A stretch of 64,000 nucleotides of DNA from positions 32,001 through 96,000 of the forward strand of contig JBJOKS010000008.1 of NCBI GenBank assembly GCA_046045965.1. Reading direction: 5' to 3'. Each line of letters starts with the position of its first letter. Position 1 is the first letter of the stretch. Source of the DNA: Cyanobacteriota bacterium (GTDB lineage Bacteria; Cyanobacteriota; Cyanobacteriia; Cyanobacteriales; Nostocaceae). This document shows, one piece after another, positions 33,471-61,759 of the stretch. The notes under the pieces are model-generated. The model saw only the letters and a list, made by a program, of their open reading frames with translations, did no database searches and had not been told where the DNA came from. Made by a program: the position numbers and the translations under genes.

Positions 33471-40148
<6,678 letters not shown>

Positions 40149-40149
40149 G

Positions 40150-43100
40150 TTATACCTCCTTGTTAAGTAGGTTTTGGATCTGTTTGAGTTTTTCGGTAAT
40201 CGCGTCCGTTGCTGGTTCTGGGGAAGTTGCTTGTTTGTCTCCAGAAACATCTACTGGTGGTTGTTGTTGACCATTGTTGGCAATTTCAACCGTCGCTGCT
40301 AGTTTTTCTGCCAAAACCTCTGTGACTAGATACTCAGCTAAAGACTCAATATTCGAGTATTCAAACAAAATTGTTGAGGAAACAGCACAACCCAAACTGG
40401 TTTGTAGCAAATTTCTTAACTCTAAAGCCAGCAAAGAATCCATTCCCATATCAAAAAATCCTAGTTGTGGGTCTAGCAGTTGAGTGTCAGGGAATCCTAG
40501 TAACTTACCGACAACACCTTGGAGATAAGTCGTCATTATTTGGAGGCGATCACTCGTTTTAGCTGCCTTTAGTTCTGCCAAAAACTCGTTAGTCTGAGTT
40601 TCTTGGACTACAGATTGAGAATCAATAAATGCCTCCAATACTGGCATCTTCATTCCTGCTGGCAATTGTGTGACAAATTGAGGCCAGTTCACAGGAAACA
40701 CCCCTACTGAAGTTGCAGATTGACCCAACAACCGATCTAAAAGTTGCAACCCCTGTTCTGGAGGAATGCTACCCATACCTAGAGAACGAATTCGGCTTTG
40801 GAATTGATCTGCTAACCGACTTGCCATACCGCTTTCTCCCCAAGCACCCCAGTTTACACTTAATCCTGGTAAACCTAGCGATCGCCGATGCTGTGCCAAG
40901 CCATCCAGGAAAGCGTTAGCGGCTGCATAATTACCTTGACCAGTTGAACCTAACAAAGATGCTGCTGAGGAAAAACCAACAAAGAAGTCCAACGGTAACT
41001 CCTGTGTTAATTGGTGCAGATGCCATCCCCCTTGAATTTTCGGAGCCATGACTTTTGTAAACCGTTCCCAGTTCATCTGCTGTAGAACCCCATCATCCAA
41101 GACTCCTGCGGCATGAATCACACCCCGCAATGGTGGTAGGGATGCCTTGATCTGTTCTACAATCCTGGCTGCATCTTGTTTAACCGCAATATCTGCCAAC
41201 AATACTGAAACTTGAACTCCGGTTTGTTCTATTTCGGTAATGGTTTGTTGTGCTGTTTCTGAGGGTTGCCGTCGTCCTGTCAATACCAAATGTTTAGCAC
41301 CCTTATCTGCCAGCCACTTAGCCAACTGTAGTCCTAACGCCCCCAGTCCACCAGTAATTAGATAACTGCCTTCAGGAGTAATGGTAATTTCTGGCTGTTC
41401 TTCAGTAATTGCCTGTTTTTGGCGTACCAGTCGCGCTACCCGACGTTCTCCCTGACGGTAAGCAATCTGATTTTCGTCTGTTGTTGAGCAGAGTTCTTGA
41501 TGTAGCTGTTGTACCAGTTCTGCTTCTGTGGTGTTCGCTTCTAAGTCAAGTAACCGACATTGCAGTTCTGGATGTTCGAGAGCTACCACCCGACCTAATC
41601 CCCACACTGGTGTTTGTTGCACTTGCACTGCTTCGCCGTCTGTACCCATACTCATCGCTCCTTGGGTGACTACCCACAAAGGAGCTACCTGTTGCTGTTT
41701 GGTCTGTACCAAAGCTTGTACCAGATGTAGCAGACTCGAACAACCAGATTCTATGGCTGTTTCTAACTGAATATCAGTTGTTGACAGATTCCACAGATGA
41801 ACAATTCCCTGAAGTTGTGAGTTTTGAGCAGTGATTTCACCTAACAGACGTTTAAATTCTTCGGGAGCAGTGGGATTAAGTTGATAGTGTTTTGCGTCTA
41901 TCTTTTGATAACTTAAACCAGGCGATACAAAAATACATCCTGTACCCAATTTTTGCACTAACCCTTGTGCCAAAGTCCCTGGTTCTGTAAATACTAACCA
42001 GTTTCCTGTTGTTTGTTGTGAAGGAGTTGAGGGTTTTTGGGCTTGCCATTCTAGTTCATAAAGCCAACGCTGTGGTGTTACCTCTGAATAAGATGATAGT
42101 TGAGCCAGTATTTGTTGATTCCACTCAGCTATTTTTTCCTTGGATAACTGTTGTTGCTTTTGAGCCGTTAGCAATACATAGCTGGCTATGCCTTTGCTGA
42201 GAACTTTACCTAATTGATAGTAAGATTTGAAACCAGACCTGACGTTATCATCACGATTTCTTTGATACAACTGCTCCAAACGTTCCTCAAAGTCTGCATC
42301 GTACAAAAAGTTAGATATTTCTGGACTCACATCAATGGCTGCAACCAATTGAAGATGATGTTCAGATAGTAACTCTACCCACTCTGATTTAGTAATAAAG
42401 TAGGAAGATGTTTCTTGGTGATCAATGGACAATTCGCTGTTAGAGATGAAATCTGCTAACACCAAATATCCCTGTTGATTCAAATGATTGCCGATATTGG
42501 TAAATAATGCTTTTTTATCGAGAATGTGGTGGGCAACTTCAAACCCAAATACTAAATCATAGTTGTCGGGAAACTCATCTTTGGCACTATCTCGATTAAA
42601 GATTTTTACCCGTTCTTGGAGTTGATTTTCGTCTGCTTTTGTGCTACCCAGTTTGGCTTGTTCACTGGAAATTGTGTAGCCATTCAATTGCAGATGTTCA
42701 TGTTTTTTGGCTAACTGAATTAAATCGGAAGCGTATCCACAGCCAAAGTCTAAAACTTTTTGACAAGCGGAAAAATCAACTTGAGCAAACAATAATTTTC
42801 TCAACTCTTTTTGAGACTCAAGAATCATCTGACGTGATTTTTCTTGATTCGGTTCGGTGAGACATTTAATCCAAGAAAAATCAGGTACTTTTTCCGGGAA
42901 TAACCCAAAGGTTAAGAATGCGGAGTCTGATTTTGCATCTTCCTGATTTCCAGCTTGTTCTTGACCCAAAATTGCGACAGCATTGTAATATTCGTGAACG
43001 ACACCACCTTTAAATTCCAGATAATTTTGCTGTCTTTTAACCAAAAGTCCCAGTAATTTTGGCAGTAATTCTCGCTCTTGTGCGGTCAGTTCCCCAGCTA

Positions 43101-45951
43101 ATTCTAATTCCTGAGCTAACCCCTCTGTTGCACCTTGGTTGAGCAATTGCACAATTGGCGTTGAAACAGTTTTATCATTGTTTTGTTCCACTTCCTGCCA
43201 ATAGCGTTGCCGTTGAAATGGATAAGTTGGCAATGTTACTTTGCGACGGGGATAATCACTATCAAATCCTGACCAATCTATTGCTACTCCTTTTGTGTAT
43301 AGTTGCCCTAAACTGGAGAGGATTTGTTGCCAATCTTCTTGCGGTGGACGTAATGAAGGCAACCAAGTACCTACTTCTTCTGGTAAACATTGACGACCCA
43401 TTCCCAGGAGTATGGGTTTAGGTCCAATTTCCATGAAGATTTTATATCCTTCCCGATGCAAAGTTTGCATACTCTGGGCAAAATGTACTGGTTGTCGGAC
43501 ATGGTTTACCCAATATTCTGGGGTGGTGATGGCTGCTGTTGCCTGTTTTCCGGTGACATTAGAAATTATGGGTATGCACGGTTGATTGTACGTAATTTCT
43601 TGAGCAATAGCTGCAAACTCCCCTAACATTGGTTCCATCAGCGGGGAGTGGAAAGCATGAGACACTTGTAGGGGTTTGGTCTTGATTCCCATGTCTGCGA
43701 AATTCTGACAAATTGCTTCTATGGCTTCACCAACACCAGAAATCACAATACTGTCTGGACCATTGATAGCTGCGATTGCTACTTTATCTGCATAAGTGGC
43801 AATTGCTTCCTTTACCTGCGACTCTGAGGCCAAAACGGATACCATCTCTCCACCGCTGGGTAACTGCTGCATTAACCTGCCCCTAGCTGCAATCAGTTTT
43901 AGTCCATCTTCTAGGCTGAATACGCCGGCTATAGTTGCTGCTACATATTCGCCTACGCTATGACCCATGACTACATCTGGTTTGATGCCCCAAGATTGCC
44001 ACAATTTAGCCAAAGCGTATTCTATGGCAAAAAGCGCAGGTTGAGTGTATGCAGTTTGATCTAAAAGTGCGGAATTTTCTACCAGTGCTGTTGATTGTGG
44101 ATAAAGCACCGATAACAAAGGCTGATCTAGGTAAGGACGCAGAATTTCATTACATTCTTCCAAAACTTGCCTAAAAGTGGGTTGAGTTTGGTATAGTTCC
44201 CAACCCATATTTACATACTGGCTACCCTGACCTGTAAACAGAAAAGCTACTTTAGGTGAACTTGTGCTAGTTGAGATTTGACCAGAAAATAGTCCAGTAA
44301 CTTCCTTACCTGCGGACAGATTGCTGAGTTTTGTAGCGAGTTCAGCTTTATCACCAGTAATCACTGCCAGTCGATGATTAAAATGCGATCGCCCTGTATT
44401 TGCGGTGTAACAAATGTCTTTTAGCTCTAATTCTGGATGATTTTCCAGATGTTGGGCATAACTACGAACTAATTCTTCCAGAGCCTTGGGAGTTTTTGCT
44501 GAGAGAGATAATATATCTAATTTACGTTCTAAAGATTCTTCTGATGGAACTTGTGCTGGTGCTTCTTCCAAAATTATATGCACGTTTGTCCCACTAATTC
44601 CGAAGGCACTGATACCCGCCATCCTGGGCTGATTACCGACATTCCAGGGAATTGCTGAAGTAGGAACTACCAAAGGCAGTTGATGCCAAGGAATATGGGG
44701 ATTGGGTTGGTTTAAGTGCAAATGGGGTGGTATTTCTTGATTCTGAAGCGATAAAACCACCTTAATCAAACCAGAAACTCCTGCTGCTGCTTCCAAATGC
44801 CCAAAATTGGTTTTGACTGAACCTACTACCAAGGGTTGATTTATGGGGCGATTTTTGCCATAAACTGCTGCCAAAGACTCTAACTCAATCGGATCTCCCA
44901 GAGATGTTCCAGTGCCGTGCGCTTCCACATAGCTGACTTGATGCGGCTCTACTCTCGCATTTTGTAGTGCTTGCTGAATTACTTCTTTCTGAGCCATTTT
45001 GTTGGGAACTGTCAGACCGCTACTTGGTCCGTCATGGTTGACAGCCGAACCTCGAATCACCGCTAAAACGTTATCACCATCAGCTATAGCATCGGAAAGA
45101 CGTTTTAGAACTACCATTCCACATCCTTCTCCCTGTCCATAACCATCTGCGGAAACATCAAATGTTTTGCAGCGACCATCTGGAGCTAAGGCTTTCAATT
45201 GGCAACGAGCAATAGTGCTGAGTGGCCAGAGAATCAGATTTACTCCACCGGCGAGGGCAAGATTAGATTCTTGGGAACGCAAGCTCTGGCAAGCTAGATG
45301 GACAGTTAGTAATGAAGAGGAACAGGCAGTATCTAGCTGAATATTCGGACCTTGTAAGCCAAGGAAGTGAGAAATACGACCTACAGCCATACTGCGGGCG
45401 TTACCTGTACCAGAATGACTATCAAATAAGTGGAGCTTTTCCAGACTCACATTCCGTTGGCCATAGTCATCTGTGCAAATACCTACATATACACCTGTTT
45501 GGCTATTTCTGAGTTTTGTTGGTGTTTGTCCGGCATTTTCTAGAGCTTCCCAAGTAACTTCTAAAAGCAGTCTTTGTTGAGGGTCTAAACTTACTGCTTC
45601 TCTGGGAGAAATCCCAAAAAATACAGGATCGAACTGGTCTACTTTTTCGATAAAACCACCTTGTTTGGTGTATGTTTTCCCAGGTTTATCGGGATTGGGA
45701 TCATAGAAGGCATCAACATCCCAGCGACCAGGTGGGACTTCTGTTACACCATCAATACCTTCATGCAATAAACGCCAGAATGAGGCAGAGTCATTGGCAT
45801 TACCAGGAAATCTGCAACCTAAACCAATAATGGCAATAGGTTCAGTTTTTTCTTTGTTGACTGCTTCCAGTCTATTTCGCATTTCTTTGATAGTTTGAAG
45901 CACTTGTTGAGAGGAAACAATTTGTTGTTCTGTCTCTGAATTATTAGTCAT
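40150..45951 (-). CDS. Type I PKS module KS-AT-O-methyltransferase-KR-ACP (CurL-like) [PKS4]
   Basis: Intact KS; malonyl AT (HAFH); [14 protein letters not shown] and [21 protein letters not shown]; start ATG 45951. Confidence 0.9.
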
Positions 45952-45952
45952 T

Positions 45953-48900
45953 TTATATTTCTTGGTGAAGTAAAAGTTGAATTTCTTTAAGTTCATCCTG
46001 AAGAGCAGTCGCAATTAGTTCCTCTTGAATGGCCTTGGCGATCGCTTCTTCATCTAATGCTTTGAGTTCTCTATCAACAAACTGTTGTTGATTCTCATTG
46101 CTATCAATTTCCAATTTCTGCTCTAATTCCCCTCCGAAAATCTTTGTTATTAAATACTTGGCCAGCTTTTGAATATTAAAATGCTCAGACAATGTGGTTA
46201 CTGAAATAGAACAATTGAAACTTGTTTCTAATAGATTCCTGAGTTCGAGCATCGTCGAATAGTTCATACCCATATCAAAGAATCCTAACTGTGAATCTGG
46301 ACTTTGGGTATCATCAAATCCTAACAATTGAGTAATCAAATCTTGCAGGTAATTTATCATTAGCTGCTGGCGTTCTCCCTGGGGAGTTTTCTCCAGTTTT
46401 TGGAAAATTCCTAAGTCTTGTGCTGGCGATTGATCATATTCTTGAAACCGAGTAGTTAAAATTTTTAGGAGTTTAGGTAGCAATTTTTGCTCTTGTTCTG
46501 TCAGTTGTTCCTGGAAATTCAACTCATCTGCTAACTGCTCCGTATTAATTTTATTTAGTAATTCAGCAATTGTATTTAGGCTATTGTCCAGGATATCTTG
46601 TTGATGTCCATTTTGTTGATTTCTTTTTTCAGAAGTTTCCAGCCAATAGCGTTGTCTTTGAAACGGATAAGTAGGCAGTGCTACTTTGTGTCTCGGATCA
46701 TCTCGGTCAAACCCGGACCAGTCCACTTTCACCCCTTTTACATACAACTGCCCTAAACTGGAAAGCATCTGTTGCCAATCTTCTTGATCAGGATTTAATG
46801 AAGGCAAGCATAATCCCAAATCTTCTGATAAATATTGCTGTCCTATTTCTACGAGTATTGGCTGCGGACTAATTTCCAAAAATAGTTTATATCCTGACTG
46901 ATGCAGAGTTTGCATACTCTGAGTAAAATCCACAGGTTGTCCGATCTGGTCTATCCAATATTCAGGAGTGGCAATTTCTGATGTGGCTTTTTCTCCAGTT
47001 AGATGAGATATGATCGGGATCTGAGGCTGGCTGTAGGTAACTCCTTTAGCTACCGCTTCAAATTCCCCTGATCTAGATTCTACGAGCCTTGCTCTAGTTG
47101 TAATCAGTTTCAGTGCATCTTCTAAGCTGAATACTCCAGCAACAGTTGCTGCTACATATTCGCCTATACTATCACCCATCACCACATCTGGTTTGATGCC
47201 CCAAGATTGCCACAATTTAGCCAAAGCGTATTCTATGGCAAAAAGTGCTGGTTGGCTATAAGCGGGTTGGTCTAGTAGAGATGAACTTTGCTTATCTATG
47301 GTTGGAGGATAGAGAACGGAAAGCAGGGGATATTCTAAATCACCACGGAGAATTTGATCACATTGGTCGATGGCTTGCCGAAATACAAATGTTTTTTGAT
47401 ACAAATCCTTTCCCATTTGTACATACTGGGAATCTTGAGCGGTGAATAAGAAGGCTACTTTCGGCGAACTAGCATTGCTAGGTAATTGCCCGGAAAATAG
47501 TCCATTTACCTGTTCAGCTTGTAAATAATGATGGAGTTTTTCTGCTAATTCTTGTTGGTTAGTGGCGATCGCAGCTATTCGATGGTTAAAGTGGGCGCGT
47601 CCAGTATTGGCTGTATAACAAATGTCTGCTAGTTCCAATTCCCGATGATTTTCCAGATGATTGCGGTAAAGACTGACTAACTCTTCCAGAGCTTGTGGAG
47701 TTTTCGCCGACAAGGTTAATAGATGAAGTGGACGTTCGCTGGCATTCTCTATTTTCGCTGGAACGGGGGCTTCTTCTAAAACGACATGAGCATTGGTACC
47801 ACTAAAACCAAAAGAGCTAACCCCCGCAATTCGTGTTTGCGAATTAACTGACCAAGGAGTGAGTTGAGTTGGGACACTAACTGGTAGTTGATCCCAGTTG
47901 ATGTAAGGATTAGGCTTCTTCAGATGCAAATGGGGAACAATTTCCTGATGTTGCAATTGTAGGACGACCTTGATCAGACCTGCTATACCCGCCGCCGCTT
48001 CTAAGTGACCCATATTGGTCTTGAGTGAACCAATCATCAAGGGATTTTCTTGGCAATGATTCCCACTAAATACTGCCCCTAATGCCCCCACTTCAATGGG
48101 GTCTCCCAGAGATGTACCTGTACCGTGGGCTTCAATATAACTGACCTGGGATGGTTCAACCCCGCCATTTTCTAAAGCCTGAGAAATGACTTTTTGCTGG
48201 GATGGTCCATTGGGTACTGTCAAACCGCCAGAAGAACCATCATGGTTAATGGCAGAGCCTCGAATCAATGCTAAAATATTATCTTGGTTTTTGATCGCAT
48301 CTGAGAGTCGCTTGAGGACAATCACACCACAACCTTCCCCCCGCACATAACCATCCGCGTCGGCATCAAAGGTTTTACAACTACCATCAGGAGATAACAT
48401 TCTCGCCCGTGAGAAGACGATGCTGCCTTCTGGTGAGAGCAGCAAGTTTACCCCACCTGCTAAGGCCAGACTACACTCCTGCTGACGCAAGCTTTGACAG
48501 GCTAAGTGTACAGCGACTAAGGAAGAAGAACAAGCGGTATCTACAGCCAAAGAAGGTCCAGTTAATCCCAGAAAGTATGAAAGTCTGCCGGCAACAGTGC
48601 TGTAAGCATTGCCAGTGCCAAAATAAGCATTGAGTTCCTTAGCTGCTGAAAGTCTTCTAGCGTAATCATTATTACAAATACCAATAAATACTCCTGCGGG
48701 GCTGTCAGATAACTTTTCAGGGACTTGATGAGAATCTTCTAGGGCTTGCCAACTCACTTCCAGCAATATGCGCTGTTGGGGATCAAGACTCATTGCTTCC
48801 CGAGGTGAAATATTAAAGAAACTCGCATCAAAAGTCTCTACGTCATTGACAAAACTGCCGTAACGGGTATACATTTTGCCGATCGCATTGGGATCGGGGT

Positions 48901-49150
48901 CATAGTAGGCATCAGCATCCCAGCGAATTTTCGGCACTTCGGTAATGGTATCGACTCCATCGCGCAAGATCCGCCATAATACTGCTGGATGATCAATTCC
49001 TCCTGGGAATCGGCAGCCCATACCAATAATTGCAATTGGTTCAGTCTGGGCATATTCTAAAGCATCCAACTTAGATTGCATCTTCTCTAGTTGAAGTAGA
49101 CCATCTGCCAGCAAAGACTTATAGTCTATACTTCTTGGCTCTTGCTTCAT
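45953..49150 (-). CDS. Type I PKS protein KS-(inactive AT)-(inactive ACP) [PKS3]
   Basis: KS triad intact. AT reads TAQDSQ and GDSIG and lacks the HAFH subdomain. ACP reads GMNYS in place of GMDSL. Confidence 0.88.
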   Translation of the reverse strand: MKQEPRSIDYKSLLADGLLQLEKMQSKLDALEYAQTEPIAIIGMGCRFPGGIDHPAVLWRILRDGVDTITEVPKIRWDADAYYDPDPNAIGKMYTRYGSFVNDVETFDASFFNISPREAMSLDPQQRILLEVSWQALEDSHQVPEKLSDSPAGVFIGICNNDYARRLSAAKELNAYFGTGNAYSTVAGRLSYFLGLTGPSLAVDTACSSSLVAVHLACQSLRQQECSLALAGGVNLLLSPEGSIVFSRARMLSPDGSCKTFDADADGYVRGEGCGVIVLKRLSDAIKNQDNILALIRGSAINHDGSSGGLTVPNGPSQQKVISQALENGGVEPSQVSYIEAHGTGTSLGDPIEVGALGAVFSGNHCQENPLMIGSLKTNMGHLEAAAGIAGLIKVVLQLQHQEIVPHLHLKKPNPYINWDQLPVSVPTQLTPWSVNSQTRIAGVSSFGFSGTNAHVVLEEAPVPAKIENASERPLHLLTLSAKTPQALEELVSLYRNHLENHRELELADICYTANTGRAHFNHRIAAIATNQQELAEKLHHYLQAEQVNGLFSGQLPSNASSPKVAFLFTAQDSQYVQMGKDLYQKTFVFRQAIDQCDQILRGDLEYPLLSVLYPPTIDKQSSSLLDQPAYSQPALFAIEYALAKLWQSWGIKPDVVMGDSIGEYVAATVAGVFSLEDALKLITTRARLVESRSGEFEAVAKGVTYSQPQIPIISHLTGEKATSEIATPEYWIDQIGQPVDFTQSMQTLHQSGYKLFLEISPQPILVEIGQQYLSEDLGLCLPSLNPDQEDWQQMLSSLGQLYVKGVKVDWSGFDRDDPRHKVALPTYPFQRQRYWLETSEKRNQQNGHQQDILDNSLNTIAELLNKINTEQLADELNFQEQLTEQEQKLLPKLLKILTTRFQEYDQSPAQDLGIFQKLEKTPQGERQQLMINYLQDLITQLLGFDDTQSPDSQLGFFDMGMNYSTMLELRNLLETSFNCSISVTTLSEHFNIQKLAKYLITKIFGGELEQKLEIDSNENQQQFVDRELKALDEEAIAKAIQEELIATALQDELKEIQLLLHQEI

Positions 49151-52100
49151 TTTATGTTTTCCCCTTTGAGGCTAGATAGTTTTTGGGCAAATAGGTTAGC
49201 AATTTCATCTTGAGACATTTCTTGTAATTGATCTTTGAATTGATCCAAGGAATCAGCCTCCGGCTCTGGGGCTTTTAAGTTAGAATCAGATGAAACAAAA
49301 AACTCCAGAGAAAGAACATCTGACACCAGATGATCCACCAGCTTTTCCAATGTAGGATAGTCAAACAGGACTGTAGAACTGATGGATTTCCCTAAACTGG
49401 ATTGGAGATGATTTCTCAACTCCACCGCCATCAAAGAATCTATTCCCAAGTCAAGTAACGATTCTCGTAACCCTATCTGCTTAGGTAATGTTACCCCCAA
49501 AACTTTGGCGGCTTGCTCCTGAACATGAATCACTAACAACTCCCGACGCTCTTCCACTGGAGTCACTTCCAGTCGCTGCATAAAATTGGACTTCCCTTTC
49601 CCCATATTTGACTGCCCCATCGTGGAAGTAAAAGCCTCCAAAAACGGCATCTTAGTCCCAATAGGTAACTGCTTCAAGAAATCAGACCAGTTGATTGACA
49701 AGACTCCCACCTGAGTAGCATCTTGTGCCAACAAGTCAGCCAATACCTGCAAACCTCCTTCAGCAGAAATGGGAATGAGTCCCTGAGTCAATATTCGATG
49801 CTGATGCTGACTTCCCAGACGTGCAGCCATTCCTCCTTCCGCCCACGGTCCCCAGTTAACACTCAGTCCCGGTAAACCCATTCCTCGTCGATAGTGAGCC
49901 AAGGCATCCATGAAAGCATTAGCGGCTGAATAATTCCCTTGACCTGGTGACCCCAGCACGGAAGCGATGGAAGAGAAACAAATGAAAAAGTCCAACGGTA
50001 GATGCTCAGTCAAGGTGTGCAGATACCAAGCCCCTTGGACTTTCGGTGCCATCACTTGTGTAAATCGCTCCCAACTCATCTGTTGCATTAAACCATCATC
50101 CAATACCCCCGCTGCATGAACTATACCTCGTAACGGTGGTAAAGATGTTTCGATTGACTCCAGAATTTTAGTCACATCTTCTGCTTGGGAGATATCCCCA
50201 CACAGAACTAATACCTGTACTCCTGCCTTTTGCAATTCTTCAATGCTTTGTTGAGACAAATCTGATGGCGGTTTACGTCCAGTAAGGACTAAATGTTTGG
50301 CTCCTTGTTCTGCCATCCACTTCGCTGTATGTAACCCCAGTGCGCCCAAACCCCCGGTAATTAAGTAACTGGCTTCGGGTTGAATCGAAGCTGGTTTTTC
50401 ATCAGTTTCATCAGCTTGTGGCATCGATACTACGACCTTGCCAATGTGTTTGCCTTGCTGCATATAGCGAAAAGCTTCCACAACCTGTTCGATGTCAAAG
50501 ACTTTATGAGGTAAAGGCTTTAAATAACCTTGTGCAAATTGCTGTCCCAAACAGTCCATGATTTGGGTAATTAAACCCGGATTTTCTTGAGCCACTTCCC
50601 CTAAGTCGAAGGGAAAATACTGAGCATCTGGTCTTTTCTGTTTGACCTGATCTTCATCCCAAATCCCAATTTTGCCAATTTCCACGAACCGCCCCCCGGG
50701 CGCTAAAACCTCAAAGCTCTTGGTAATAAATTCCCCATTCAGACTATTGAGTACCACATCCACACCCTGTCCCTGGGTAAGATGCATGACTTCTGCGGCA
50801 AAATCTAAAGTCCGGGAGTTCATCAGATGTTTCACACCCATAGATTTGAGAAATTCCCATTTGGAAGGGCTGGCCGTCGCAAATATTTCTGCTCCCGCTT
50901 GTTGTGCTATCTGCACTGCTGCTTGCCCCACTCCTCCTGCCGCAGCATGAATTAATACTCTGTCTCCTGGTTGAATTTTCGCTAGGTTATGTAACCCATG
51001 ATAAGCAGTGGAGAAGACTAAGGGAATGGTTGCTGCTGCAAATGAGTTCATCTGTTTGGGTTGAAGAACTACAAACTCGGCTCTGGCGGTGATAAAACTA
51101 CTCAAAGCACCAGGCAGAAGGTTGGCCATCACTTCATCCCCCACTTGCAAATGAGAAACCCCTTCTCCAACTGCCACAATTGTGCCGGCACATTCAAACC
51201 CAAAAGTCAGTTGTTCGGCACTGGTAATGCCGAGATGTTGGGCATAGTAATCTTTCAGCAGCCCTAAAGCATTCAGTACATCGCGGAAATTCAGTCCTAC
51301 AGTTTTCACTCTTATTTCCACTTCCTGTGGACCTGGGGAGCGACGTTCCATTGGTTGTAAGCTGAGATTGTCTAACAACCCATATTCTGATAACTTCAGT
51401 TGGAATGGTTGTTGCGAGGAAATTTCTAATCTGCCTTGTGTGGATCTTAGAGCTTTTTGTTGCCGTGTTAACCTGGCAACATGACGTACCTGTTGACGGT
51501 AAGCGATTTGGTTTTCATCACCAGGGGATAATAATTCCTGCAACAAAGTTGGTACTGCTTGGAAATCTTCTCCAGCAGGATCTAAGTCTAAACACCGACA
51601 TTGTAATTCCCCATTTTCCTGGGCAATTGTTCGCCCCAGTCCCCACAGTGGGCTTTGTTGAAACTGTATATTATGTGACTTATTACCCACTGATTGAGCG
51701 CCTTGAGTCACTAGCCACAATGCAGGGGGATTTTTTATTTGTTGATTTTTGACTATAGCTTGTACTAAGTGAAGTACGCTGCCACAACCCAATTCTTGGG
51801 ACTTTTGCAACTCCTGTGCCGATGTTGGTGTTGTTAGTGTTGCTTGTAAACTCCACAGATGGACAATTCCTCGTAATGGGGGTTGCTGCTCTAAGCTCTC
51901 TTGCAATAGGCGCGGGAATTCACTGACATTAATCGGATTGATTTGATAATGATGGGATGCTAACTGCTGATAATTCTCCCCTGGTGTCACTAAGATACAA
52001 TGCTGACCTTGTTTTTCTAAGGATTCTGCCAGTTGTTTGCCTATACCTGTGGGTGGGGAAAACAGTAGCCAGCTACCTGGTTTTGTTAAGTCAATGGATT

Positions 52101-55100
52101 GGTTTGCCGGTGACGTTGATTGCGGTTGCCAATGGATTTGATATAACCAATTACTGACATCTGGTCTGAGAGTATTTAGTAAGGCTTGGCGAGAAGTACG
52201 TAATACGGTTAAACCTTCTACTTGAGCTACTACTATTCCCTGTTCATCCAATATCCGGACAACACCTGTCAACGTTCGTTCATTGGTTTTGATTGCACCT
52301 ATCTCTACTTGCGTCCACAGATGATTACTAGCAGGACGATAAACTTGTAGCCGTTTTATGTTGACTGGTAAGTAAGTACTCTGATTTTCAGTTTCATCAA
52401 AAGCAGCAGCCAACAGATGGAAACTAGCATCTAACAGCACGGGGTGCAGTTGGTATTTTGTTGCTTCTGGGACTAAGGTTTCTGGTAACTGAATTTTACC
52501 TAGTGCTTTTCCTTGACTGCGCCACAGTTGCTGAACAGCTTGGAAACTTGAACCGTAATCAATGCCTCTATCTCTATACTCTTGGTAGAAGTCTTGAGGT
52601 GATATTTGTTGATGATACTCGGCTTTAATGGCTTTTAAGTCCGTTTTTTCTAGTTCATCATCCTGATCCCCTGCCAGCAATTTTCCTTGTGCATGTAGAA
52701 TCCACCTCGATTCTGACTTCTGAGAATCCATCTCCAGACTCAAAATCTCGAAACTATAAGTTTGCGCTTCTTGTGGGGTTAATACAACCTGAATCGTTTT
52801 GATTTCATCTTCTGATAAAATCAGTGCTTGTTGAATAACAACATCTTCTAGGATTAAATTTTCTGATTTGAATAAAGTTGCACCTGCTGCTAAAGCTATT
52901 TCTAGATAACCTGCTCCTGGAAAAACGGGTTTAGAAAAAACACAATGGTGTTGCAGGTAAGTCGGATGGGAAGCACTGAGAAGGCACTGAAAACGAATTT
53001 GCTGTTCTAAGCCAGCTAAATACAATCTCTGACCAAGTAGAGGGTGAAGATTCTCATGGTTTGATAAAAATTGGGTTTTATTCGTCAGATTATTATCTGT
53101 CTCCCAATACCGTTGCCGTTGAAAGGGATAGGTGGGCAACACCACTTTACTATGGGAATAATCTTGCTCAAAGCCTAACCAATCTACTTTCATTCCCCGC
53201 ACATATAATTCTCCCAAGCTCTGTAGTATTTGTTGCCAGTCTTCTTGACCCGAACGCAAAGAAGGCAACCAAACCCCAACTCCTTCTGGCAAACACTGTC
53301 TTCCCATCCCTAACAATATTGGTTTGGGTCCTATTTCTAGGAAGATTTCATAACCTTCTTGGTGCAATGTCTCCATGCTTTGGGCGAATTTCACTGGTTG
53401 GCAGACATGATTTACCCAGTAGCTGGCTGTGGTAATACTCTCGTCGGCTCTTGCTCCTGTGACATTCGATATCAATGGAATCCGAGGTTGATGGTAGGTT
53501 ATTTGATTGGCTACTGCTTCAAATTCCGCTAACATCGGTTCCATTAAGGGTGAATGAAAAGCATGAGATACTTGTAGCTGTTTGGTCTTGATTCCTTCTG
53601 CTTCTAAGCTCTCCCTCAGTTTTCCAATGGCTTCTGCTTCACCAGAAATGACAATGCTCACAGGTCCGTTGATGGCAGCTATGGCCACTTTTTCTGTGTA
53701 TGGGGCAATCAGTTGATTTACTTTCTCTGGGGATGCCATCACAGCTAACATCTCACCACCGTGAGGTAACTGCTGCATTAACCGTCCCCGATGGGCTATC
53801 AGTTTGAGTCCATCTTCTAAACTAAATACTCCTGCTACACAAGCTGCGACATATTCCCCAACACTATGACCCATCACCCCATTTGGTTTCATCCCCCAAG
53901 ATTCCCATAACTTAGCCAGGGCATATTCAACGGCAAATAAGGCAGGTTGAGTATACGCGGTTTGGTCTAGCAAAGAGGAGCTTGACGCTTCCTGCGTGTT
54001 AGGATAAATAATTTCTAGAAGTGTATGTTCCAGATAGGAACTGAGGATTTGCTCACATTGATCTAAAGCTTGGCGGAAAGTCGGCTGAGTTTCATACAGT
54101 TGTCGCCCCATGTTCAGATATTGGCTACCTTGACCTGTGAATAGGAAGGCTACTTTGGGCGCACTGCTACTACTTGGTAGTTGTTCTGAAGATATTCCTG
54201 CTGCTTCTGACCCGGCTTTGTGTTGCAGAAGTTTTTCTGTTAGTTCCTGTTGGTCAGAGGCGATAATGGCTAGACGATGGTTGAAGTGGGCGCGTCCAGT
54301 ATTGGCTGTATAACATACATCTGCAACTGCTAATTCTGGATGAGTTTCTAAATGATGTTGATAACGACTGACTAAATCTTCAAGGGCTGTTTCTGTTTTT
54401 GCCGATAAGGTTAATATATGGAGTGGACGTTCTAAATTATCTTCACTTTTGCCTGGGGATTTTTGATTTTTGACTGGCTCAGGAAATTCTTCCAAAACTA
54501 TATGGGCATTAGTGCCTCCCATGCCAAAAGAACTAATCCCTGCTATTCTTGCTTGACCTGGACAAGACCAAGGCATTAATGAGGTAGGAATTTTTATCGG
54601 TAATTTATCCCAATCTACATGGGGGTTAGGTTGTTTAAAGTGTAAATGAGGTGGAATTTGCTGATGCCCAAGTGCTAAAACCACCTTAATCAAAGCTGAT
54701 ACACCTGCTGCTGCTTCTAAATGCCCAAGATTAGTCTTTACTGAGCCAACAACCAAAGGTTGATCCACTGGACGATTTTTGCCGTATATTGCTGCTAGAG
54801 CTTCTATCTCTATGGGATCTCCTAAAGAAGTTCCTGTGCCGTGAGCCTCGACATAGGTTATTTGATGGGGTTCTAACTTGGCATTTGTCAGTGCTTCTTG
54901 AATGACCTGTTTCTGAGCCATTCTATTGGGAACTGTGAAAGCACTACTTGGTCCATCGTGGTTAACAGCAGACCCTCGAATCACTGCTGAGATTAAATCA
55001 CCATCAGCAATAGCATCGGATAAACGCTTTAAAACTACAACACCACATCCTTCTCCCTGACCATAACCATTGGCAGAGGCATCAAAAGTCTTGCAACGAC

Positions 55101-55875
55101 CATCTGGAGATAGTGCTTTTAATTGGCAGCGACCTATCGTGCTGGTGGGCGCTAAGATCAGATTGACTCCACCTACTAATGCTAAGTTGGATTCTCCTGA
55201 ACGCAAGCTCTGAGAAGCCAGATGGATAGCAACTAGAGAACTTGAACAAGCTGTGTCTATCTGTATATTAGAGCCTTGTAAACCCAATAGATGAGAAATA
55301 CGACCGACACCAACACTTCTACTCTTACCGAGAGCAGAGTAAGTACCAGCACTTTGATTTTGGTGCATGATACTCAAGGCAGAATAGTCATCTGTGGAGA
55401 TGCCGATGAAAACACTTGTCTTGCTATTCTTCAGGTTAGCCCATGTTTGTCCGGCATTTTCCAGTGCTTCCCATGTCACTTCCAACAGTAGTCTGTACTG
55501 AGGATCTAAACTAATTGCTTCCCGAGGAGAAATTCCAAAAAATAGGGGATCAAACTGGTCAAATTGATCAATAAATCCCCCCTCTTTGGTGTAGGTTTTT
55601 CCAGCAACTTCTGGGTCTGGATCGTAATAAGCATTAACATCCCAACGCTGAGGAGGCACTGGTGTAATGGCATCTATGCCATCATGTAATAAGTTCCAGT
55701 ATGTCGATAGGTCATTAGCACCACCAGGAAATCGACAGGCCATGCCAACAATAGCGATTGGTTCGGTTTTGGCTTTATTTACTGCTTCCAGCTTACTTCG
55801 CATTTCTTTGAGAGCTTGAAGCACTGCTTGAGATGAGAAATTTTGTTGGGTTGTTTGAGAAATATCACTAGCCAT
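49147..55875 (-). CDS. Type I PKS fully reducing module KS-AT-DH-ER-KR-ACP [PKS2]
   Basis: DH HPLLG...[15 protein letters not shown]...[35 protein letters not shown]. Confidence 0.92.
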
Positions 55876-55876: not shown

Positions 55877-58800
55877 TTAGTTCTCCTCCTTTAGCAAAGC
55901 CTGGATTTCTTGTAATTCTGCCGCGATCGCAATATCAATTTCCTCTGGCGTTTCCCTATTGGGAGGAGGTACATTTGGCAGATTTTGACTGTTTTTAAGT
56001 TCAAGTTCTTGGTCTTGACCTTCTGGGAAAATTTCCTTAATTAAGTATTCTGCCAAGTCTTGGATATTAGAAGTCTCAAACAATGTAGCCGTACTAATAG
56101 AACAACCAAAAGTAGAACTCAACAGATTTCTCAATTCGACAGCAATCAATGAATCCATTCCCATTCTAAAGAATCCTAATTCTGGCTGAGGAAGTTGAGA
56201 TTTCGAGAATCCTAATAAGTTACCTATTTTTACTTGAAGATAATGAATCATAATTTGGTGGCGTTCAATCTCGACTGCTGCTTTCAGTTGTTCCAAAACT
56301 TCTTGACTCTTGGTTTCTTTCTGTTGTTTTGAAACCAATGCTTCTAAGCATGGCATTTTTACACCACCAGGCAAATGTTCGGCAAATCTAGACCAATTGA
56401 TCGGAAATACTCCTACTTGACTGACTGGCTGTGATAATAGCTCTCCTAATATCTGTAATCCTTTTTCTTGAGTTATAAAACTCATTCCTGTTGCACGTAG
56501 CCGATTTTGATGTTGACTTCCTAGACGAGCTGCCATTCCCCCTTGCTCCCAAGCCCCCCAGTTGATGGTTAATCCTGGTAATCCCATGCTCTGACGATAG
56601 TAAGCTAAAGCATCCATAAAGGCATTCGCCGCCGCATAGTTTCCTTGACCTGCTGAACCAAGTAAGGATGTGATGGAGGAAAAACAAACAAAGAAGTCTA
56701 GTGGTAGTTTCTGAGTTAAGTGATGTAAATGCCAAGCTCCTTGTAATTTTGGAGCCATAACTTTCCGAAACCGCTCCCAGTTCATCTGCTGTAAAACACC
56801 ATCATCTATGATTCCTGCTGCATGAATCACACCTCGTAATGGTGCTGGAGATTCCTCAATCAGCTTCAGGATACTAGCGACATCTTGTTCCTCAGATATA
56901 TCTCCTAGTCTGACTGATATTTTTGCTCCTGTTTGTTCCAACTGCTGAATAGTTTCCTGGACTCTTGCTGAGGGGGGGCGACGTCCGGTTAATACTATAT
57001 GTCGCGCGCCCTGTTTAATCATCCATTGAGCTACTTCCAATCCCAAAGCTCCCAGACCACCAGTCACTAAATAACTTGCTTCTGGTTTTAGTGTTATTTG
57101 TTGCTGTTGTTCTGAGATTTGATCTGGCGATCGCCTGACTAATCTAGCTACATAACGCTCTTTTCCACGGATGGCTATTTGGTCTTCATCGTCAGGATTT
57201 AATATTTCCTTGGCTAATGCTTCTAATGTTTCTGAGCTTTGGGTTTGGTCTACATCAACTCGCCGACATTTTAGCTCTGGGTGTTCTAATGCTATCACCC
57301 GACCCAAACCCCATAAAGGTGCTTGCTGTACTTTTACTTGCTGTTGATTTTCTTCTACATTTTGTGTTTCTTGGGTCACTAACCATAGAGGTACTACTGA
57401 TCTCGGATCTGATCCCATTGCTTGCACTAAATGTAGTACACTTGCACACCCTAGTTCTTGAGCAGTTTCCAACTCTTCTGTTGAGGTATTAATACTCCAT
57501 AAATGAACGACTCCTACTAATTTATTTTGAGTAGTCAACAACTCTTTTATTAGTTGTTTAAACTCTTGGGCATTGGTGGGGTTCAGTTGATAGTGTTGCT
57601 TGTCTAACTGATTGTAGCTAGATCCAGGAGTGACGATGACACAATTCTGATTCTGTGCTTCTAAAACTGTTTTTAACTCTTGGGTTGGTTCGTCGGCAGC
57701 GAATATTAGCCAATTCCCTGTCTCCTTTGGTGAAATTGACTTTTTCTGGGGAGATTGCGTGACTTTCCATTTCAATTCGTAAACCCATTGTTTAACTGCC
57801 ACTTCTGAGTAAGATAACAGTTGACTTAGAATTTGTTGGTTCAACTGATAAATTTGCTGTTTGGGAATTTCCTCTTGTTTTTTAGCCGTTAATAATACAT
57901 AGCTGGCTAATCCTTTTCTGAGCAGCTTTCCTAACTGATTGTAGGAGCGAAAAGCAGATTTAATATTCTCGTCATGACTTTTTTGCTCTAATTCATGTAG
58001 ATTATCTTCAAATTCAGGATCTTCCAAATAGTTAGCTATTTCCTGACTGATATCTATGGCTTGAATGAGTTGCAGATGATTTGTTGATAGTTGCTCTACC
58101 CAATGCTGTTTGGTAATAAAGTAAGAGGAAGTTTCTTCATGGTCGATATCAAAGTCTCCATTGGCAATAAAATCTGCCATGACTAATAATCCTGCTTCCT
58201 GAAGATGCCTACTTATATTAGAAAATAACAGGGATTTATTTTTAATATGATGAGCTACTTCAAATCCAAATACTAGGTTATAGTGATCAGGAAATTCATC
58301 TTTGGAGCTATCTCGGTTAAAAACTTGGATCTGCTCTTGCAGTTGATAGGCATGAATTTGGCTTGTGGCAAATTTAGCTTGTTCACTGGAAATCGTATAA
58401 CCATTCAGTTGCAGGTGTGGGTAAGTTTTGCCTAATGTGATTAAATCTGAGCCATATCCACAACCAAAATCTAATACTTTCTGACAGGACGAGAAATCTA
58501 CTTGTGCAAAACACAGGTTTCTTAGCTCTTTCTGTGACTCTAGCAAAGCTGTTTGATATGTTGGGTTTTGATGGGGGTTGGTAAACACTTTTACCCAGCA
58601 AAAACCAGGGATAATTTCTGGTAATATCCCAAAGGTGATGAATTGTAGTGATTTACCTTCTGTCTGTTCTTCTTGGCTTAACTTTGCTTTACTAACTTCT
58701 GTAAAGGAATTATAGTAATCATGAACTACATTGCCTTTAAATTGAGAAGAATTTTGATGCCGCTCAGTTAAAATTCTGAGCAACTTGGGTAACAATTTTT

Positions 58801-61759
58801 GTTCGTCTTCCGTTAATTGTGCCGATAACTTCAGTTCTTGAGTTAATCCTTCTGTATCACCTTGATTCAGTAAGTTAACAACCAAACTTGAGCTTTCTTT
58901 GACAGTGTTCTCATATTTGCTTTTGGAAGTATCGATCCAATAACTTTCCCTCTGAAAGGGATAGGTGGGCAATGCTACCTTCTGACAGCTATACTCTTGC
59001 TCCAACCCTGACCAATTTACCTTCACTCCCTGCACATACAACTGCCCTAAACTTTCTAACATCTGCTGCCATTCTTCTTGAGGAGGACGCAGCGAAGGCA
59101 ACCAAACTCCCACTTCTTCTGGTAGACATTGATGCCCCATCCCCAGCAAAATGGGCTTGGGTCCGATTTCCAAGAACAGTTTATAACCTTGATCATGCAG
59201 AGTTTTCATACTCTCGGCAAACCGCACTGGTTGCGTGACATGATTCACCCAATATTCGGCAGTAGTCATTTCCGAATCCACTTGTTTGCCAGTGACATTA
59301 GAAATAAGTGGTATTCGAGGGTTGTTGTAGGTGACTTGTTTGGCTACAGCTTCAAACTCTGCCAGCATTGGTTCCATCAGAGGGGAGTGGAAAGCATGAG
59401 AGACCTGTAGGGGTTTGGTCTTCAGTCCCATAGCTTCTAACTTGCTACAAATATCTCTGATGACATGACTCACACCTGAAATCACGATGCTGTTGGGACC
59501 ATTGATGGCAGCTATAGCTACTTGTGAAGTATAGTCTGCTAGAGTCTCTCTTAAGAGCGATTCTGATGCCATCACTGAAACCATTTCTCCTCCTGGGGGC
59601 AACTGTTGCATTAACCGCCCCCTTGTCGCTATCAGTTTCAGAGCGTCTTCTAAACTAAAAATTCCTGCCACACAAGCTGCTACATATTCCCCGACACTGT
59701 GACCCATGACGACATCTGGCTTAATGCCCCAGGATTCCCATAACTTAGCTAGGGCATATTCAAAGGCAAATAGCGCAGGTTGGGTATAAGCGGTTTGGTC
59801 TAGTTGCTTTGATTTGGATTCATCTATAGTGTGAGGATAAAGAACTTCTAGTAGAGGATGTTCTAACTCCGTTCGGAGGATTTGGTCACATTGGTCTAGG
59901 GCTTGACGGAAAACTGGCTGTGTTTGATACAGTCGCCGTCCCATGTTTAGATATTGGCTCCCTTGTCCGGTGAAGAGGAATGCCACTTTGGGTACACTGG
60001 TGCTGCTAGGGAGTTCTTTTGAGAAGACTCCGGCTACTTCTTCTCCGGCAGCATAGTTGAGCAGTTTTTCGGCTAATTCCTGTTGGTTGTAGGCGATCAC
60101 GGCTAAACGATGGTTAAAGTGCGATCGCCCTGTGTTGGCAGTGTAACAAATGTTGGTGATCGGATCTTGTCTGTGAGTTTTCAGATGATTGTGATAAAGA
60201 CTGACTAACTCATCAAGAGCTTTTTCTGTTCTTGCTGACAGCGTTAATATATGTGGACGCTCTAAAGAATCCTCATGTTTAATTTTTGAAGTTTGAATTT
60301 TGATTTCAATTGGTGCTTCTTCTAGAACCAGATGAGCATTAACTCCACCAAAACCGAAGGAACTTATACCAGCCCGCCGTGGAATCACCTCTTTTGTTTC
60401 TGTCTCTAACTGCTGCCATTCTTGAGTTTCACAGACTATATAAAAGGGGCTACCCTCTAACTCAATGCGTGGATTTAATTGCTGAAAGTTAGTTATCTTG
60501 GGCAATTTCCTATGCTTCATTGCTAATAGGACTTTAATCACCCCAGCAATTCCAGATGCTGGTTCCAAATGCCCAATATTTGTTTTAACTGCTCCTAGTC
60601 CACAATAGGGCTTTTGCAAGCTGGGTAACTCATACTGCTGATGCAGCTTTCTAAAGCTTCGTTTCAGGGCATTAATTTCAATTGGGTCTCCCAAGGGTGT
60701 GCCAGTACCATGAGTTTCAATATAAGAGACTGTATTAGGAGCGATATTAGCTTTAGTATACGCAGCCAGAACCACTTGGGATTGGGCATAAATATTTGGA
60801 GAAGTTAGGGTTCGTGCCTTGCCACCATGATTGACAGCACTGCCTTTGATTACACCGTAGATGTGATCGTTGTCCTCAATCGCTTTGATCAGAGGCTTTA
60901 ATAAAATTACCCCTGCGCCTTCTCCCCTAACATAGCCATCTGCTTGACTGTCAAATGTTTTGCACTGTTCGGTGGGAGATAACATCCCCAATTGACTAAA
61001 GGAGATGTAACTTGTAGGCGTACACAAAACACTTACTCCACCCACCAGTGCCATCTCACATTCGGATTCTTTGATAGAATTGATGGCTTGATGAATTGCT
61101 ACTAGTGAACTGGAGCAAGCTGTGTCTACAGGTACACTAGGACCATGAAAATTGAAAAAGTAGGAAATTCGATTGGCAATGATGGTGGTATAAGTTCCTG
61201 TTGCAGTATGCCCTTCAATCAATTTTTCATCCTGGTACTGTAACTGATCGTAGTCATGGTTACAAACTCCAAGAAACACACCTACAGGACTACCAGACAG
61301 GTCTAATGGCGAATATCCAGCGTCTTCTAAACAAGACCAACTCAACTCCAGCATGATTCTTTGCTGAGGGTCCATGCGTTGCGCTTCTCTAGGGGAAATG
61401 CCGAAAAATTCGGCATCAAATTTGTCTACCCCTTCAATTATTCCTCCCCATTTACTGATGCTTTTGTGTGGCTCTTGAGGATTGGGAGAATAATACTTCT
61501 GCACATCCCACCTCTGGGGGGGAATTTCGGTGATGCTATTGACTCCTGCTTCCAGGTTGAGCCAGAATTGCTCGTAATTATTAGCTCCTGGAAAGCGACA
61601 ACCAATACCTATAATAGCGATAGCGAAGCGATCCGTAGGAATCGCTTCACTCTTGTGTTGCTCTGTTTCTTCAGTTTGGTTGGTTGGTTGCTTTTGTATT
61701 TCCACTTCTTGTTGACTGGAAGAAAAATTCTCTTGATCTTGTTGGGAATTTTGATTCAT
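55877..61759 (-). CDS. Type I PKS module KS-AT-O-methyltransferase-KR-ACP [PKS1]
   Basis: Divergent KS (DTACSSS, HGTGT, GHLE); [20 protein letters not shown] and [21 protein letters not shown]. Confidence 0.9.
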   Translation of the reverse strand: MNQNSQQDQENFSSSQQEVEIQKQPTNQTEETEQHKSEAIPTDRFAIAIIGIGCRFPGANNYEQFWLNLEAGVNSITEIPPQRWDVQKYYSPNPQEPHKSISKWGGIIEGVDKFDAEFFGISPREAQRMDPQQRIMLELSWSCLEDAGYSPLDLSGSPVGVFLGVCNHDYDQLQYQDEKLIEGHTATGTYTTIIANRISYFFNFHGPSVPVDTACSSSLVAIHQAINSIKESECEMALVGGVSVLCTPTSYISFSQLGMLSPTEQCKTFDSQADGYVRGEGAGVILLKPLIKAIEDNDHIYGVIKGSAVNHGGKARTLTSPNIYAQSQVVLAAYTKANIAPNTVSYIETHGTGTPLGDPIEINALKRSFRKLHQQYELPSLQKPYCGLGAVKTNIGHLEPASGIAGVIKVLLAMKHRKLPKITNFQQLNPRIELEGSPFYIVCETQEWQQLETETKEVIPRRAGISSFGFGGVNAHLVLEEAPIEIKIQTSKIKHEDSLERPHILTLSARTEKALDELVSLYHNHLKTHRQDPITNICYTANTGRSHFNHRLAVIAYNQQELAEKLLNYAAGEEVAGVFSKELPSSTSVPKVAFLFTGQGSQYLNMGRRLYQTQPVFRQALDQCDQILRTELEHPLLEVLYPHTIDESKSKQLDQTAYTQPALFAFEYALAKLWESWGIKPDVVMGHSVGEYVAACVAGIFSLEDALKLIATRGRLMQQLPPGGEMVSVMASESLLRETLADYTSQVAIAAINGPNSIVISGVSHVIRDICSKLEAMGLKTKPLQVSHAFHSPLMEPMLAEFEAVAKQVTYNNPRIPLISNVTGKQVDSEMTTAEYWVNHVTQPVRFAESMKTLHDQGYKLFLEIGPKPILLGMGHQCLPEEVGVWLPSLRPPQEEWQQMLESLGQLYVQGVKVNWSGLEQEYSCQKVALPTYPFQRESYWIDTSKSKYENTVKESSSLVVNLLNQGDTEGLTQELKLSAQLTEDEQKLLPKLLRILTERHQNSSQFKGNVVHDYYNSFTEVSKAKLSQEEQTEGKSLQFITFGILPEIIPGFCWVKVFTNPHQNPTYQTALLESQKELRNLCFAQVDFSSCQKVLDFGCGYGSDLITLGKTYPHLQLNGYTISSEQAKFATSQIHAYQLQEQIQVFNRDSSKDEFPDHYNLVFGFEVAHHIKNKSLLFSNISRHLQEAGLLVMADFIANGDFDIDHEETSSYFITKQHWVEQLSTNHLQLIQAIDISQEIANYLEDPEFEDNLHELEQKSHDENIKSAFRSYNQLGKLLRKGLASYVLLTAKKQEEIPKQQIYQLNQQILSQLLSYSEVAVKQWVYELKWKVTQSPQKKSISPKETGNWLIFAADEPTQELKTVLEAQNQNCVIVTPGSSYNQLDKQHYQLNPTNAQEFKQLIKELLTTQNKLVGVVHLWSINTSTEELETAQELGCASVLHLVQAMGSDPRSVVPLWLVTQETQNVEENQQQVKVQQAPLWGLGRVIALEHPELKCRRVDVDQTQSSETLEALAKEILNPDDEDQIAIRGKERYVARLVRRSPDQISEQQQQITLKPEASYLVTGGLGALGLEVAQWMIKQGARHIVLTGRRPPSARVQETIQQLEQTGAKISVRLGDISEEQDVASILKLIEESPAPLRGVIHAAGIIDDGVLQQMNWERFRKVMAPKLQGAWHLHHLTQKLPLDFFVCFSSITSLLGSAGQGNYAAANAFMDALAYYRQSMGLPGLTINWGAWEQGGMAARLGSQHQNRLRATGMSFITQEKGLQILGELLSQPVSQVGVFPINWSRFAEHLPGGVKMPCLEALVSKQQKETKSQEVLEQLKAAVEIERHQIMIHYLQVKIGNLLGFSKSQLPQPELGFFRMGMDSLIAVELRNLLSSTFGCSISTATLFETSNIQDLAEYLIKEIFPEGQDQELELKNSQNLPNVPPPNRETPEEIDIAIAAELQEIQALLKEEN

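Follow-up and report, generated by a model that had tools for sequence, protein, structure and literature searches.

Introduction

Programmed iteration, in which a module of a polyketide synthase (PKS) is reused through back-transfer of the chain from its acyl carrier protein (ACP) to its own ketosynthase (KS), is known from the aureothin, borrelidin, stigmatellin, and azalomycin systems and from module 5 of gladiolin/etnangien. The excerpts of two accounts of such modules used here (PMC5082578, PMC10921412) describe two or three rounds, an iterating KS that takes the first substrate itself, and an exit set by KS substrate preference, and they make no mention of an entry KS on a dead carrier. 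Here we describe a 64,000-nucleotide stretch (the window) from a cyanobacterium of the family Nostocaceae (assembly GCA_046045965.1, contig JBJOKS010000008.1, positions 32,001 to 96,000), in which PKS3, the third gene in a row of five PKS genes, encodes a "ghost" module with an intact KS, a damaged acyltransferase (AT), and an ACP devoid of its phosphopantetheine serine. The ghost stands directly before PKS4, an O-methylating module. This system is real, conserved, and apparently undescribed, and seems to be a form of programmed iteration in which priming falls to a separate KS; PKS4 would be reused by the same back-transfer as the modules above, but for an estimated 7-12 rounds with a spread of chain lengths.

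Other described systems share single features with this one. The ghost KS-AT is most like curacin CurL (4MZ0, 59% identity, model root mean square deviation 2.5 A), and the pair CurL-CurM has the order of PKS4-PKS5, that is, an O-methyltransferase (O-MT) module followed by a ketoreductase (KR)-ACP-sulfotransferase-thioesterase (ST-TE) module. CurL is used once, whereas PKS4 is proposed to iterate, and sampled genomes with ordinary O-MT modules carry no ghost. In FabH/KAS III-type priming, two KSs share an ACP, one for initiation in the first round and one for elongation in all later rounds. The ghost KS would resemble FabH/KAS III, a stand-alone Cys-His-Asn enzyme, in function only: it is a type I Cys-His-His KS that originated from a complete module, still sits in a KS-AT frame, and is putatively tethered by docking helices. 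The KS0 modules of trans-AT synthases likewise contain a KS unit that adds nothing on its own carrier; they retain a live ACP and in most cases have lost the HGTGT His, whereas the ghost ACP is dead and the HGTGT His is kept in 40/40 homologues. Finally, mycobacterial Pks12 also performs repeated cycles that depend on docking between polypeptides (PMC2443190, abstract), but with two complete alternating modules and no dead one.

Results

PKS3 is an open frame of 1065 amino acids (aa) on the reverse strand, whose ATG shares 4 nt with the PKS2 stop and whose stop is separated by 1 nt from the likely PKS4 ATG. Its parts are as follows.

45953..49150, (-): PKS3 ghost module; docking helix, KS, KS-AT linker, AT stump, post-AT element, Ser-less ACP, docking helices
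49043..49150, (-): N-terminal docking helix (aa 1-36), toward the PKS2 C-terminus; helix 10-36 in the predicted structure
47768..49042, (-): KS with Cys207, His342, and His382 intact, by motifs; outside the post-O-MT KS clade
47459..47767, (-): KS-AT linker domain; Pfam PF22621/PF16197
46631..47458, (-): dead AT stump (AQDSQ, GDSIG, 78-aa deletion, junction ~47095-47060), by motifs and alignment with PKS4
46436..46585, (-): post-AT helical element, closest to the element preceding the O-MT in PKS1 and PKS4
46133..46405, (-): ACP with Tyr964 (46261-46259) in place of the phosphopantetheine serine, by alignment; helical in the model
45956..46063, (-): C-terminal docking helices, toward the PKS4 N-terminus; 9 invariant columns in 14 rows

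The KS motifs DTACSSS at aa 204 (48541), HGTGT at aa 342 (48127), and GHLE at aa 381 (48010) make up the Cys-His-His set of a cis-AT elongating module. The AT reads AQDSQ at 47440-47426 and GDSIG at 47176-47162, with its serine still present. At the junction RARLVESRSGEF (47095-47060), 10 aa stand where PKS4 has 88, so that 78 aa are lost, HAFHS among them; the deleted span is presumably the small AT subdomain. PKS3 thus lacks the GHSxG motif, HAFH histidine, and small subdomain that together characterize an active AT. In the ACP, the motif at 46270-46256 is GMNYS, with the Tyr codon TAT opposite the Ser codon TCT of PKS4. Pfam found no KR, dehydratase (DH), enoylreductase (ER), or methyltransferase (MT) domain in PKS3.

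These lesions are not an assembly error, because single contigs from two sequencing runs of other studies, X4 record 12 (45149-46801) and X6 record 25 (45711-46523), each span the ACP lesion with 0 differences (runs X1/X2, a possible source, and small-share runs were excluded). Contigs of the RNA runs covered 30/30 bins of the cluster, compared with 25/30 (X4) and 21/30 (X6) bins of a control stretch that a DNA run covers fully, a weak hint that the cluster is transcribed. Elsewhere in the window, a repeat-like intergenic stretch at ~13650-15640 showed very high contig depth in two RNA runs, with 45-nt skips. In a fold model built from an 85-row alignment, which leans on the intact ATs within that alignment, the AT stump is predicted to be folded (block pLDDT 75-97) and the ACP helical (block pLDDT 80-94), and the low-confidence stretches 841-858, 905-913, and 1007-1032 could act as a tether. 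A single-sequence fold (pLDDT 33.5) was discarded.

The ghost module is a conserved family, not a local accident. A scan of public genomes yielded 69 loci, 17 of which carry the same gene with both the AT and the ACP damaged; 23 of 24 matches in a protein search were ghosts as well, and cluster look-ups gave further ones. The bearers in the genome scan are heterocystous and non-heterocystous cyanobacteria from freshwater, soil, and marine habitats. Merging identical C-termini reduced 60 sequences to 40 distinct ghost proteins; fragments of <700 aa and the ordinary modules L074, L047, and P0025 were left out, the ACPs of L074 and L047 falling outside the ghost ACP clade. The serine position of the ACP holds Ser in 0 of the 40, Tyr in 37, and His in 1 (P0008), and the ACP is deleted in 2 (L020 and P0047), which rules out a requirement for Tyr; both deleted forms retain the C-terminal docking end. 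A Ser-bearing orthologue would not have stayed hidden, since the searches rank overall likeness and did return the intact module P0025. Rescue by the neighboring serine is removed by the variability of the residue following Tyr, which is mostly Ser but Ala, Leu, Thr, Lys, or Pro in some homologues. In the KS, HGTGT and the second His are present in 40/40 and the Cys motif in 39/40, the 40th protein being truncated ahead of the motif.

The AT is far less uniform. GHSxGE is intact in 10/40 and HAFHS in 2/40, and a whole AT occurs once (L046/P0023), on an already dead ACP; recent copying of this AT from its neighbors was ruled out by DNA identities of 72% and 69%. The deletion measures 78, 74, 70-71, or 60 aa among orthologues or is absent, and shortened ATs in the unrelated L022, L023, L026-L028, L030, L031, L034, L038, and L068 rule out that it is a unique design. 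The ACP lesion is fixed and earlier, and the AT lesion is secondary, variable, and an ordinary part of the picture.

Ratios of nonsynonymous to synonymous substitution (dN/dS, Nei-Gojobori) were pooled over six disjoint ghost pairs and five PKS4 pairs. The ghost KS gave 0.15 (0.19 for the window against L018), the linker 0.34, the AT halves 0.24 and 0.31, and the C-terminal helices 0.21; the ACP value of 0.35 is inflated by the L020 pair, in which the ACP is deleted. The corresponding PKS4 values were 0.12 (KS), 0.17 (AT), 0.11 (MT), 0.14 (KR), and 0.20 (ACP). The ghost KS and docking end are constrained like a working enzyme, and the dead parts are looser, as in a scaffold. A first-pass annotation of this DNA had listed the intact 1065-aa frame with both docking ends and a full KS triad, the AQDSQ, GDSIG, and GMNYS (TCT to TAT) changes, the ~78-aa deletion removing the catalytic His of the AT, and the lack of reductive domains, all of which we recovered, and its view that this is not simple decay agrees with a KS dN/dS well below 1. 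It had proposed looking for the same lesions in homologues, where the ACP lesion proved fixed and the AT lesion did not, making its phrase "precisely gutted" too strong for the AT. Of the findings it had named as fatal to its interpretation, orthologues with an intact AT/ACP failed to appear, given an ACP serine in 0/40, and pantetheinylation of the neighboring Ser is contradicted by the lack of conservation of that residue.

Phylogenetic placement separated the ghost KS from its ACP. A tree of 131 KS rows had a 32-row clade (support 97), marked by nine residues, that took in 15/15 rows of the PKS4 KS (KS4), 17/18 KSs coming after an O-MT module (among them the window's KS2 and KS5), and 0/19 ghost KS rows (two of these rows having an identical C-terminus). 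KS4 thus looks suited to a methoxy chain, and its own ACP is now the only possible source of one. The ghost KSs fall in six places of the tree, and a single clade was rejected (p-AU 2e-99; 12 ghost KSs, 31-row tree). In 10/18 loci the ghost is the first PKS and its KS, of starter type, is therefore the only entry; the identity of these KSs to first KSs in ordinary modules reaches 96%. At L044 the ghost is preceded by an AMP-ligase and a free ACP. The N-terminal docking end also differs among orthologues in step with the upstream partner. In contrast to the KSs, the ghost ACPs group in a single clade (17 rows, support 99) within a 36-row clade otherwise made up of O-MT-module ACPs, and the dead ACP of the window is 52-53% identical to those of PKS1 and PKS4 (ACP1 and ACP4), 31% to ACP2, and 25% to ACP5. 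The 17 best non-ghost matches of the post-AT element all belong to O-MT modules (L011-L079 and the window). Because its ACP and post-AT element resemble those of O-MT modules, the ghost is probably a former O-MT module minus MT-KR. One of two tandem O-MT modules may have lost MT-KR and the ACP serine once, with the AT decaying later and the KS being swapped repeatedly, so that a single dead chassis would have received a succession of new live KSs, each fitting the donor upstream of it.

The ghost lies immediately upstream of a PKS4 orthologue in 16/18 loci, the window included. Its neighbors in the window are the following.

55877..61759, (-): PKS1, starter-type KS-AT-OMT-KR-ACP; Pfam, motifs, KS tree
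49147..55875, (-): PKS2, KS-AT-DH-ER-KR-ACP, fully reducing, putative donor to the ghost KS; Pfam, motifs
40150..45951, (-): PKS4, KS-AT-OMT-KR-ACP, putative iterating module; Pfam, motifs, dN/dS
33471..40250, (-): PKS5, KS-AT-KR-ACP-ST-TE, predicted CurM-type terminal-alkene release; Pfam, 4GBM E 1e-148, 3QIT E 3e-144
32463..33446, (-): DUF6208 gene, which recurs beside ghost clusters

The PKS4 frame reaches back to a TTG at 46014, and the ATG at 45951 agrees with the starts of its orthologues. Its catalytic motifs are intact in 15/15 orthologues, one of them with a variant HAFHS, and its MT is closest to the StiD/StiE O-MTs (E 9e-69). Among 389 genomes of the family, a PKS4-type MT (>=88%) was found in 10, and a ghost ACP in 11, namely these 10 and one genome with a broken PKS4. 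Among 401 genomes of the order the MT was found in 7, of which 7/7 have a ghost; a ghost is missing from 6 further genomes of that sample, whose O-MT modules are of the ordinary kind (54-66%). Neither sample contained a PKS4-type module lacking a ghost. At L080:12470-15244, PKS4 is cut after the AT with insertion-type open reading frames (ORFs) behind it, and the ghost is intact; this is a recently broken cluster. The C-termini of PKS2 and PKS3 are of different type, and conservation together with gene order suggests that the ghost C-terminal helices dock to the PKS4 N-terminus. Net charges of the docking ends (ghost C -5, PKS4 N +1, PKS4 C -1, PKS5 N -3) are too weak to tell self-docking of PKS4 from iteration in cis.

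Several flanking genes recur. DUF6208 adjoins clusters on either side (window 32463-33446 (-), L019, L020, L086, L088, L090, L091, L098, and L101), and the term was absent from the literature searched. An ABC1-family kinase gene lies beside the cluster at L012:5455-7239, L084:3-1610, and L086:9981-11765. The gene before PKS1 (62050-63948 (-)) was considered as a fatty acyl-AMP ligase (FAAL) and rejected on Pfam evidence, leaving the cluster without a loading gene; it contains ~19 DDEE[L/S]T repeats, an FRG1/DUF7910 region, and DUF6200, and DUF6200 proteins also adjoin the clusters in L011 and L092.

Discussion

We hold, with slightly better than even confidence, that the ghost KS is the entry (priming) KS for the O-methylating PKS4, which would then iterate. 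With neither a carrier serine nor an intact AT, the ghost cannot hold or load an extender under established PKS chemistry. Its KS cysteine would take the fully reduced chain from the PKS2 ACP or, in other clusters, be loaded from a starter or FAAL-loaded ACP, and the chain would leave onto ACP4, the sole carrier at hand. Tethered to PKS4 through its C-terminal docking helices, and provided that it can reach ACP4, the ghost would condense the chain on malonyl-ACP4; PKS4 would reduce and O-methylate this first new unit, such that no ketone remains. ACP4 would then return the methoxy product to KS4 for several repeats, after which KS5 would accept the chain and the ST-TE release a terminal alkene. 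The return step is suggested indirectly by the position of KS4 in the post-O-MT clade and by the paralogy of ACP4 to the dead ACP, which would have been the former donor of KS4. KS swaps that track the donors favor an entry role and disfavor both a purely structural role and use of the ghost in every cycle. Three points favor condensation on malonyl-ACP4: both His are kept, a plain chain seems a poor fit for KS4, and elongation is known with KS-AT and ACP on separate proteins, at an ACP preference of only ~10-fold (PMC11907408, from excerpts).

The main rival to priming by condensation is that the ghost KS moves the chain unchanged to an unloaded ACP4 and thence to KS4, which performs all condensations. 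We consider this unlikely, albeit a serious alternative that shares the anatomy, conservation, and product of the priming model. The HGTGT histidine, usually lost in non-elongating KSs, is retained in 40/40 homologues, KS4 would need to accept a non-methoxy chain despite its place in the post-O-MT clade, and the intact PKS4 AT would tend to load ACP4 first. Non-elongating transfer KSs are nevertheless known in trans-AT systems (excerpts of PMC10921412).

The first-pass annotation had read the ghost as a KS relay or adaptor between PKS2 and PKS4, possibly a parking site needed for iteration. The PKS4 ACP is indeed the sole plausible acceptor, but the parking part is not supported. Retaking of the chain from ACP4 in each cycle would fit the constant company of ghosts and PKS4-type modules, and Pks12 does iterate between polypeptides (PMC2443190). 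A KS used every cycle should be of the methoxy-accepting type, as are 15/15 KS4 rows and 0/19 ghost KS rows, so that such use is improbable; the ghost KSs instead comprise six types, swapped in step with the upstream donor, KS4 is itself intact and conserved, and a conserved N-terminal docking helix that could receive the ACP4 tail is missing from starter-type ghosts. About as improbable is a scaffold that bridges two docking types while the upstream ACP loads KS4 directly and the ghost KS is structural. The retention of both docking ends and the differing C-termini of PKS2 and PKS3 accord with it, but 10/18 loci have no upstream PKS to bridge, and a KS kept only for its structure agrees poorly with a dN/dS of 0.15 and retained catalytic residues.

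Cryptic elongation, with another serine pantetheinylated and loaded by a trans-AT to leave a ketone, is very improbable: most homologues have Ser after Tyr and a stand-alone AT lies near one cluster (L086), but Ala, Leu, Thr, Lys, or Pro replaces that Ser in some homologues, the ACP is deleted in 2/40, and the described polymethoxy-1-alkenes (PMAs) contain no ketone (PMC3497026, from excerpts). Neutral decay of a skipped module, which could account for the heterogeneous AT lesions and the looser constraint (0.24-0.31 in the AT stump against 0.17 in the PKS4 AT, and 0.35 in the dead ACP against 0.20 in ACP4), is the least probable explanation of all in view of the open frame and KS residues kept across genera and families, the intact new KSs acquired after a single ACP loss, and the lack of PKS4-type modules without a ghost in the 389 and 401 genomes.

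The product of the cluster is quite probably a set of PMAs. In the excerpted text of PMC3497026, the PMAs of Aphanizomenon ovalisporum carry 7-12 methoxy groups, one at every other carbon, together with a terminal alkene and a pentyl tail, and have no ketone; the text suggests a PKS origin and states that PMAs have been known since 1979 and are reported to disturb zebrafish embryo development. The window cluster has the corresponding KR and PKS O-MT with a malonyl-type AT, and a predicted CurM-type ST-TE for terminal-alkene release. The Umezakia ovalisporum genome of L019 has a ghost, an O-MT module, and an ST-TE module, with one PKS-type O-MT and 11 KS matches in all; one O-MT module set against 7-12 methoxy groups suggests that PKS4 would repeat ~7-12 times. 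A C6 starter, n cycles, and a final unit with CO2 loss give 2n+7 carbons, in agreement with a range of C21 (n=7) to C31 (n=12). The window genome has two cis O-MT modules, and the extra PKS1 and PKS2 would give one methoxy, a gap, and then a methoxy run, for a predicted PMA with a single gap and a 4,6,...,18,22 pattern. If the starter is C4, this pattern matches 4,6,8,10,12,14,16,18,22-nonamethoxy-1-pentacosene, a compound named in the same excerpts (PMC3497026).

A large trans-AT PKS cluster in the genome of the window (G000:C5:133745-221473) also includes two O-MT-like domains, and the L011 genome has similar O-MT matches on the contig of its ghost cluster; PMAs are noted in tolytoxin producers (PMC3497026). 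No PMA gene cluster or module of this kind was found in the full-text literature searched, a scope that left subscription journals mostly outside. The ghost cluster is likewise not described in the excerpts used of PMC6155766, nor in those of PMC5259702 and PMC5772238, which deal with Planktothrix genomes and swinholide/scytophycin clusters.

Several points weigh against this interpretation. Condensation on ACP4 and simple transfer to it give the same product and are inseparable by sequence alone. The link to PMAs is correlational, with genome and chemistry from different strains; the named ghost matches (Umezakia ovalisporum, Tolypothrix, Scytonema, Anabaena, and Nostoc) are strains other than those chemically analyzed. 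The 18,22-gap isomer is attributed to A. ovalisporum (PMC3497026), yet the L019 cluster lacks PKS1/PKS2, which leaves that isomer unexplained. Other reported sources of PMAs are Raphidiopsis, Microcystis, Pseudanabaena, and green algae (PMC7077266, from excerpts), none of which is among the named ghost matches. The release enzyme of several clusters is of another type, so that alkenes are not the product of every cluster. The ghost does not adjoin PKS4 in 2/18 loci: at L018 it stands apart, with a PKS4-type MT on a different contig of the same genome, and the genome of L024 has a second ghost, L025. One KS that follows an O-MT module (L044) lies outside the 32-row clade, whose membership is thus not an absolute rule, and the trees were quick or FastTree searches. 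Finally, the family and order samples overlap, and related genomes are not independent.

Variation among the loci extends to both ends of the pathway. L024 and L025 come from one Dapis genome, whose two ghosts have different KS types, one adjoining PKS4 and one alone, and could be two entries to one iterating module. In L017, L021, L024, and L035, the module ahead of the ghost is a KS-AT-DH-KR with a C-methyltransferase-type insert (Pfam call made on two such proteins, L092 and L100), which would place a methylated alkene at the chain start; sponge polymethoxydienes cited in the excerpts of PMC3497026 offer a lead for these variants. Another variant (L095:5257-20000 and L096:746-6484) combines an AMP-ligase, a free ACP, a 454-aa protein, the ghost, PKS4, and a KS-AT-MT-ACP-TE protein. 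The smallest (L101:7643-19419) consists of DUF6208, the ghost, PKS4, a TubC_N-thioesterase, and an LCM methyltransferase, and its product would be a polymethoxy acid or its ester; the minimal form of the cluster is thus two PKS genes and a thioesterase.

Taken together, the findings suggest, at a confidence just short of even, a portable "two KS, one ACP" cassette, in which a priming KS on a dead module and a self-iterating O-methylating module, running for far more cycles than described iterative modules, are plugged between at least six entry and four release types to make PMAs and related orphan polymethoxy lipids. If this is true, a priming KS makes a C-C bond on the carrier of another polypeptide as a programmed step. 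The ghost and PKS4 offer a small natural system for the open question of how a module is entered once and reused many times, and the natural KS swaps mark where an iterating module can join new starters. With a candidate PMA cluster named, producers could be screened by sequence.

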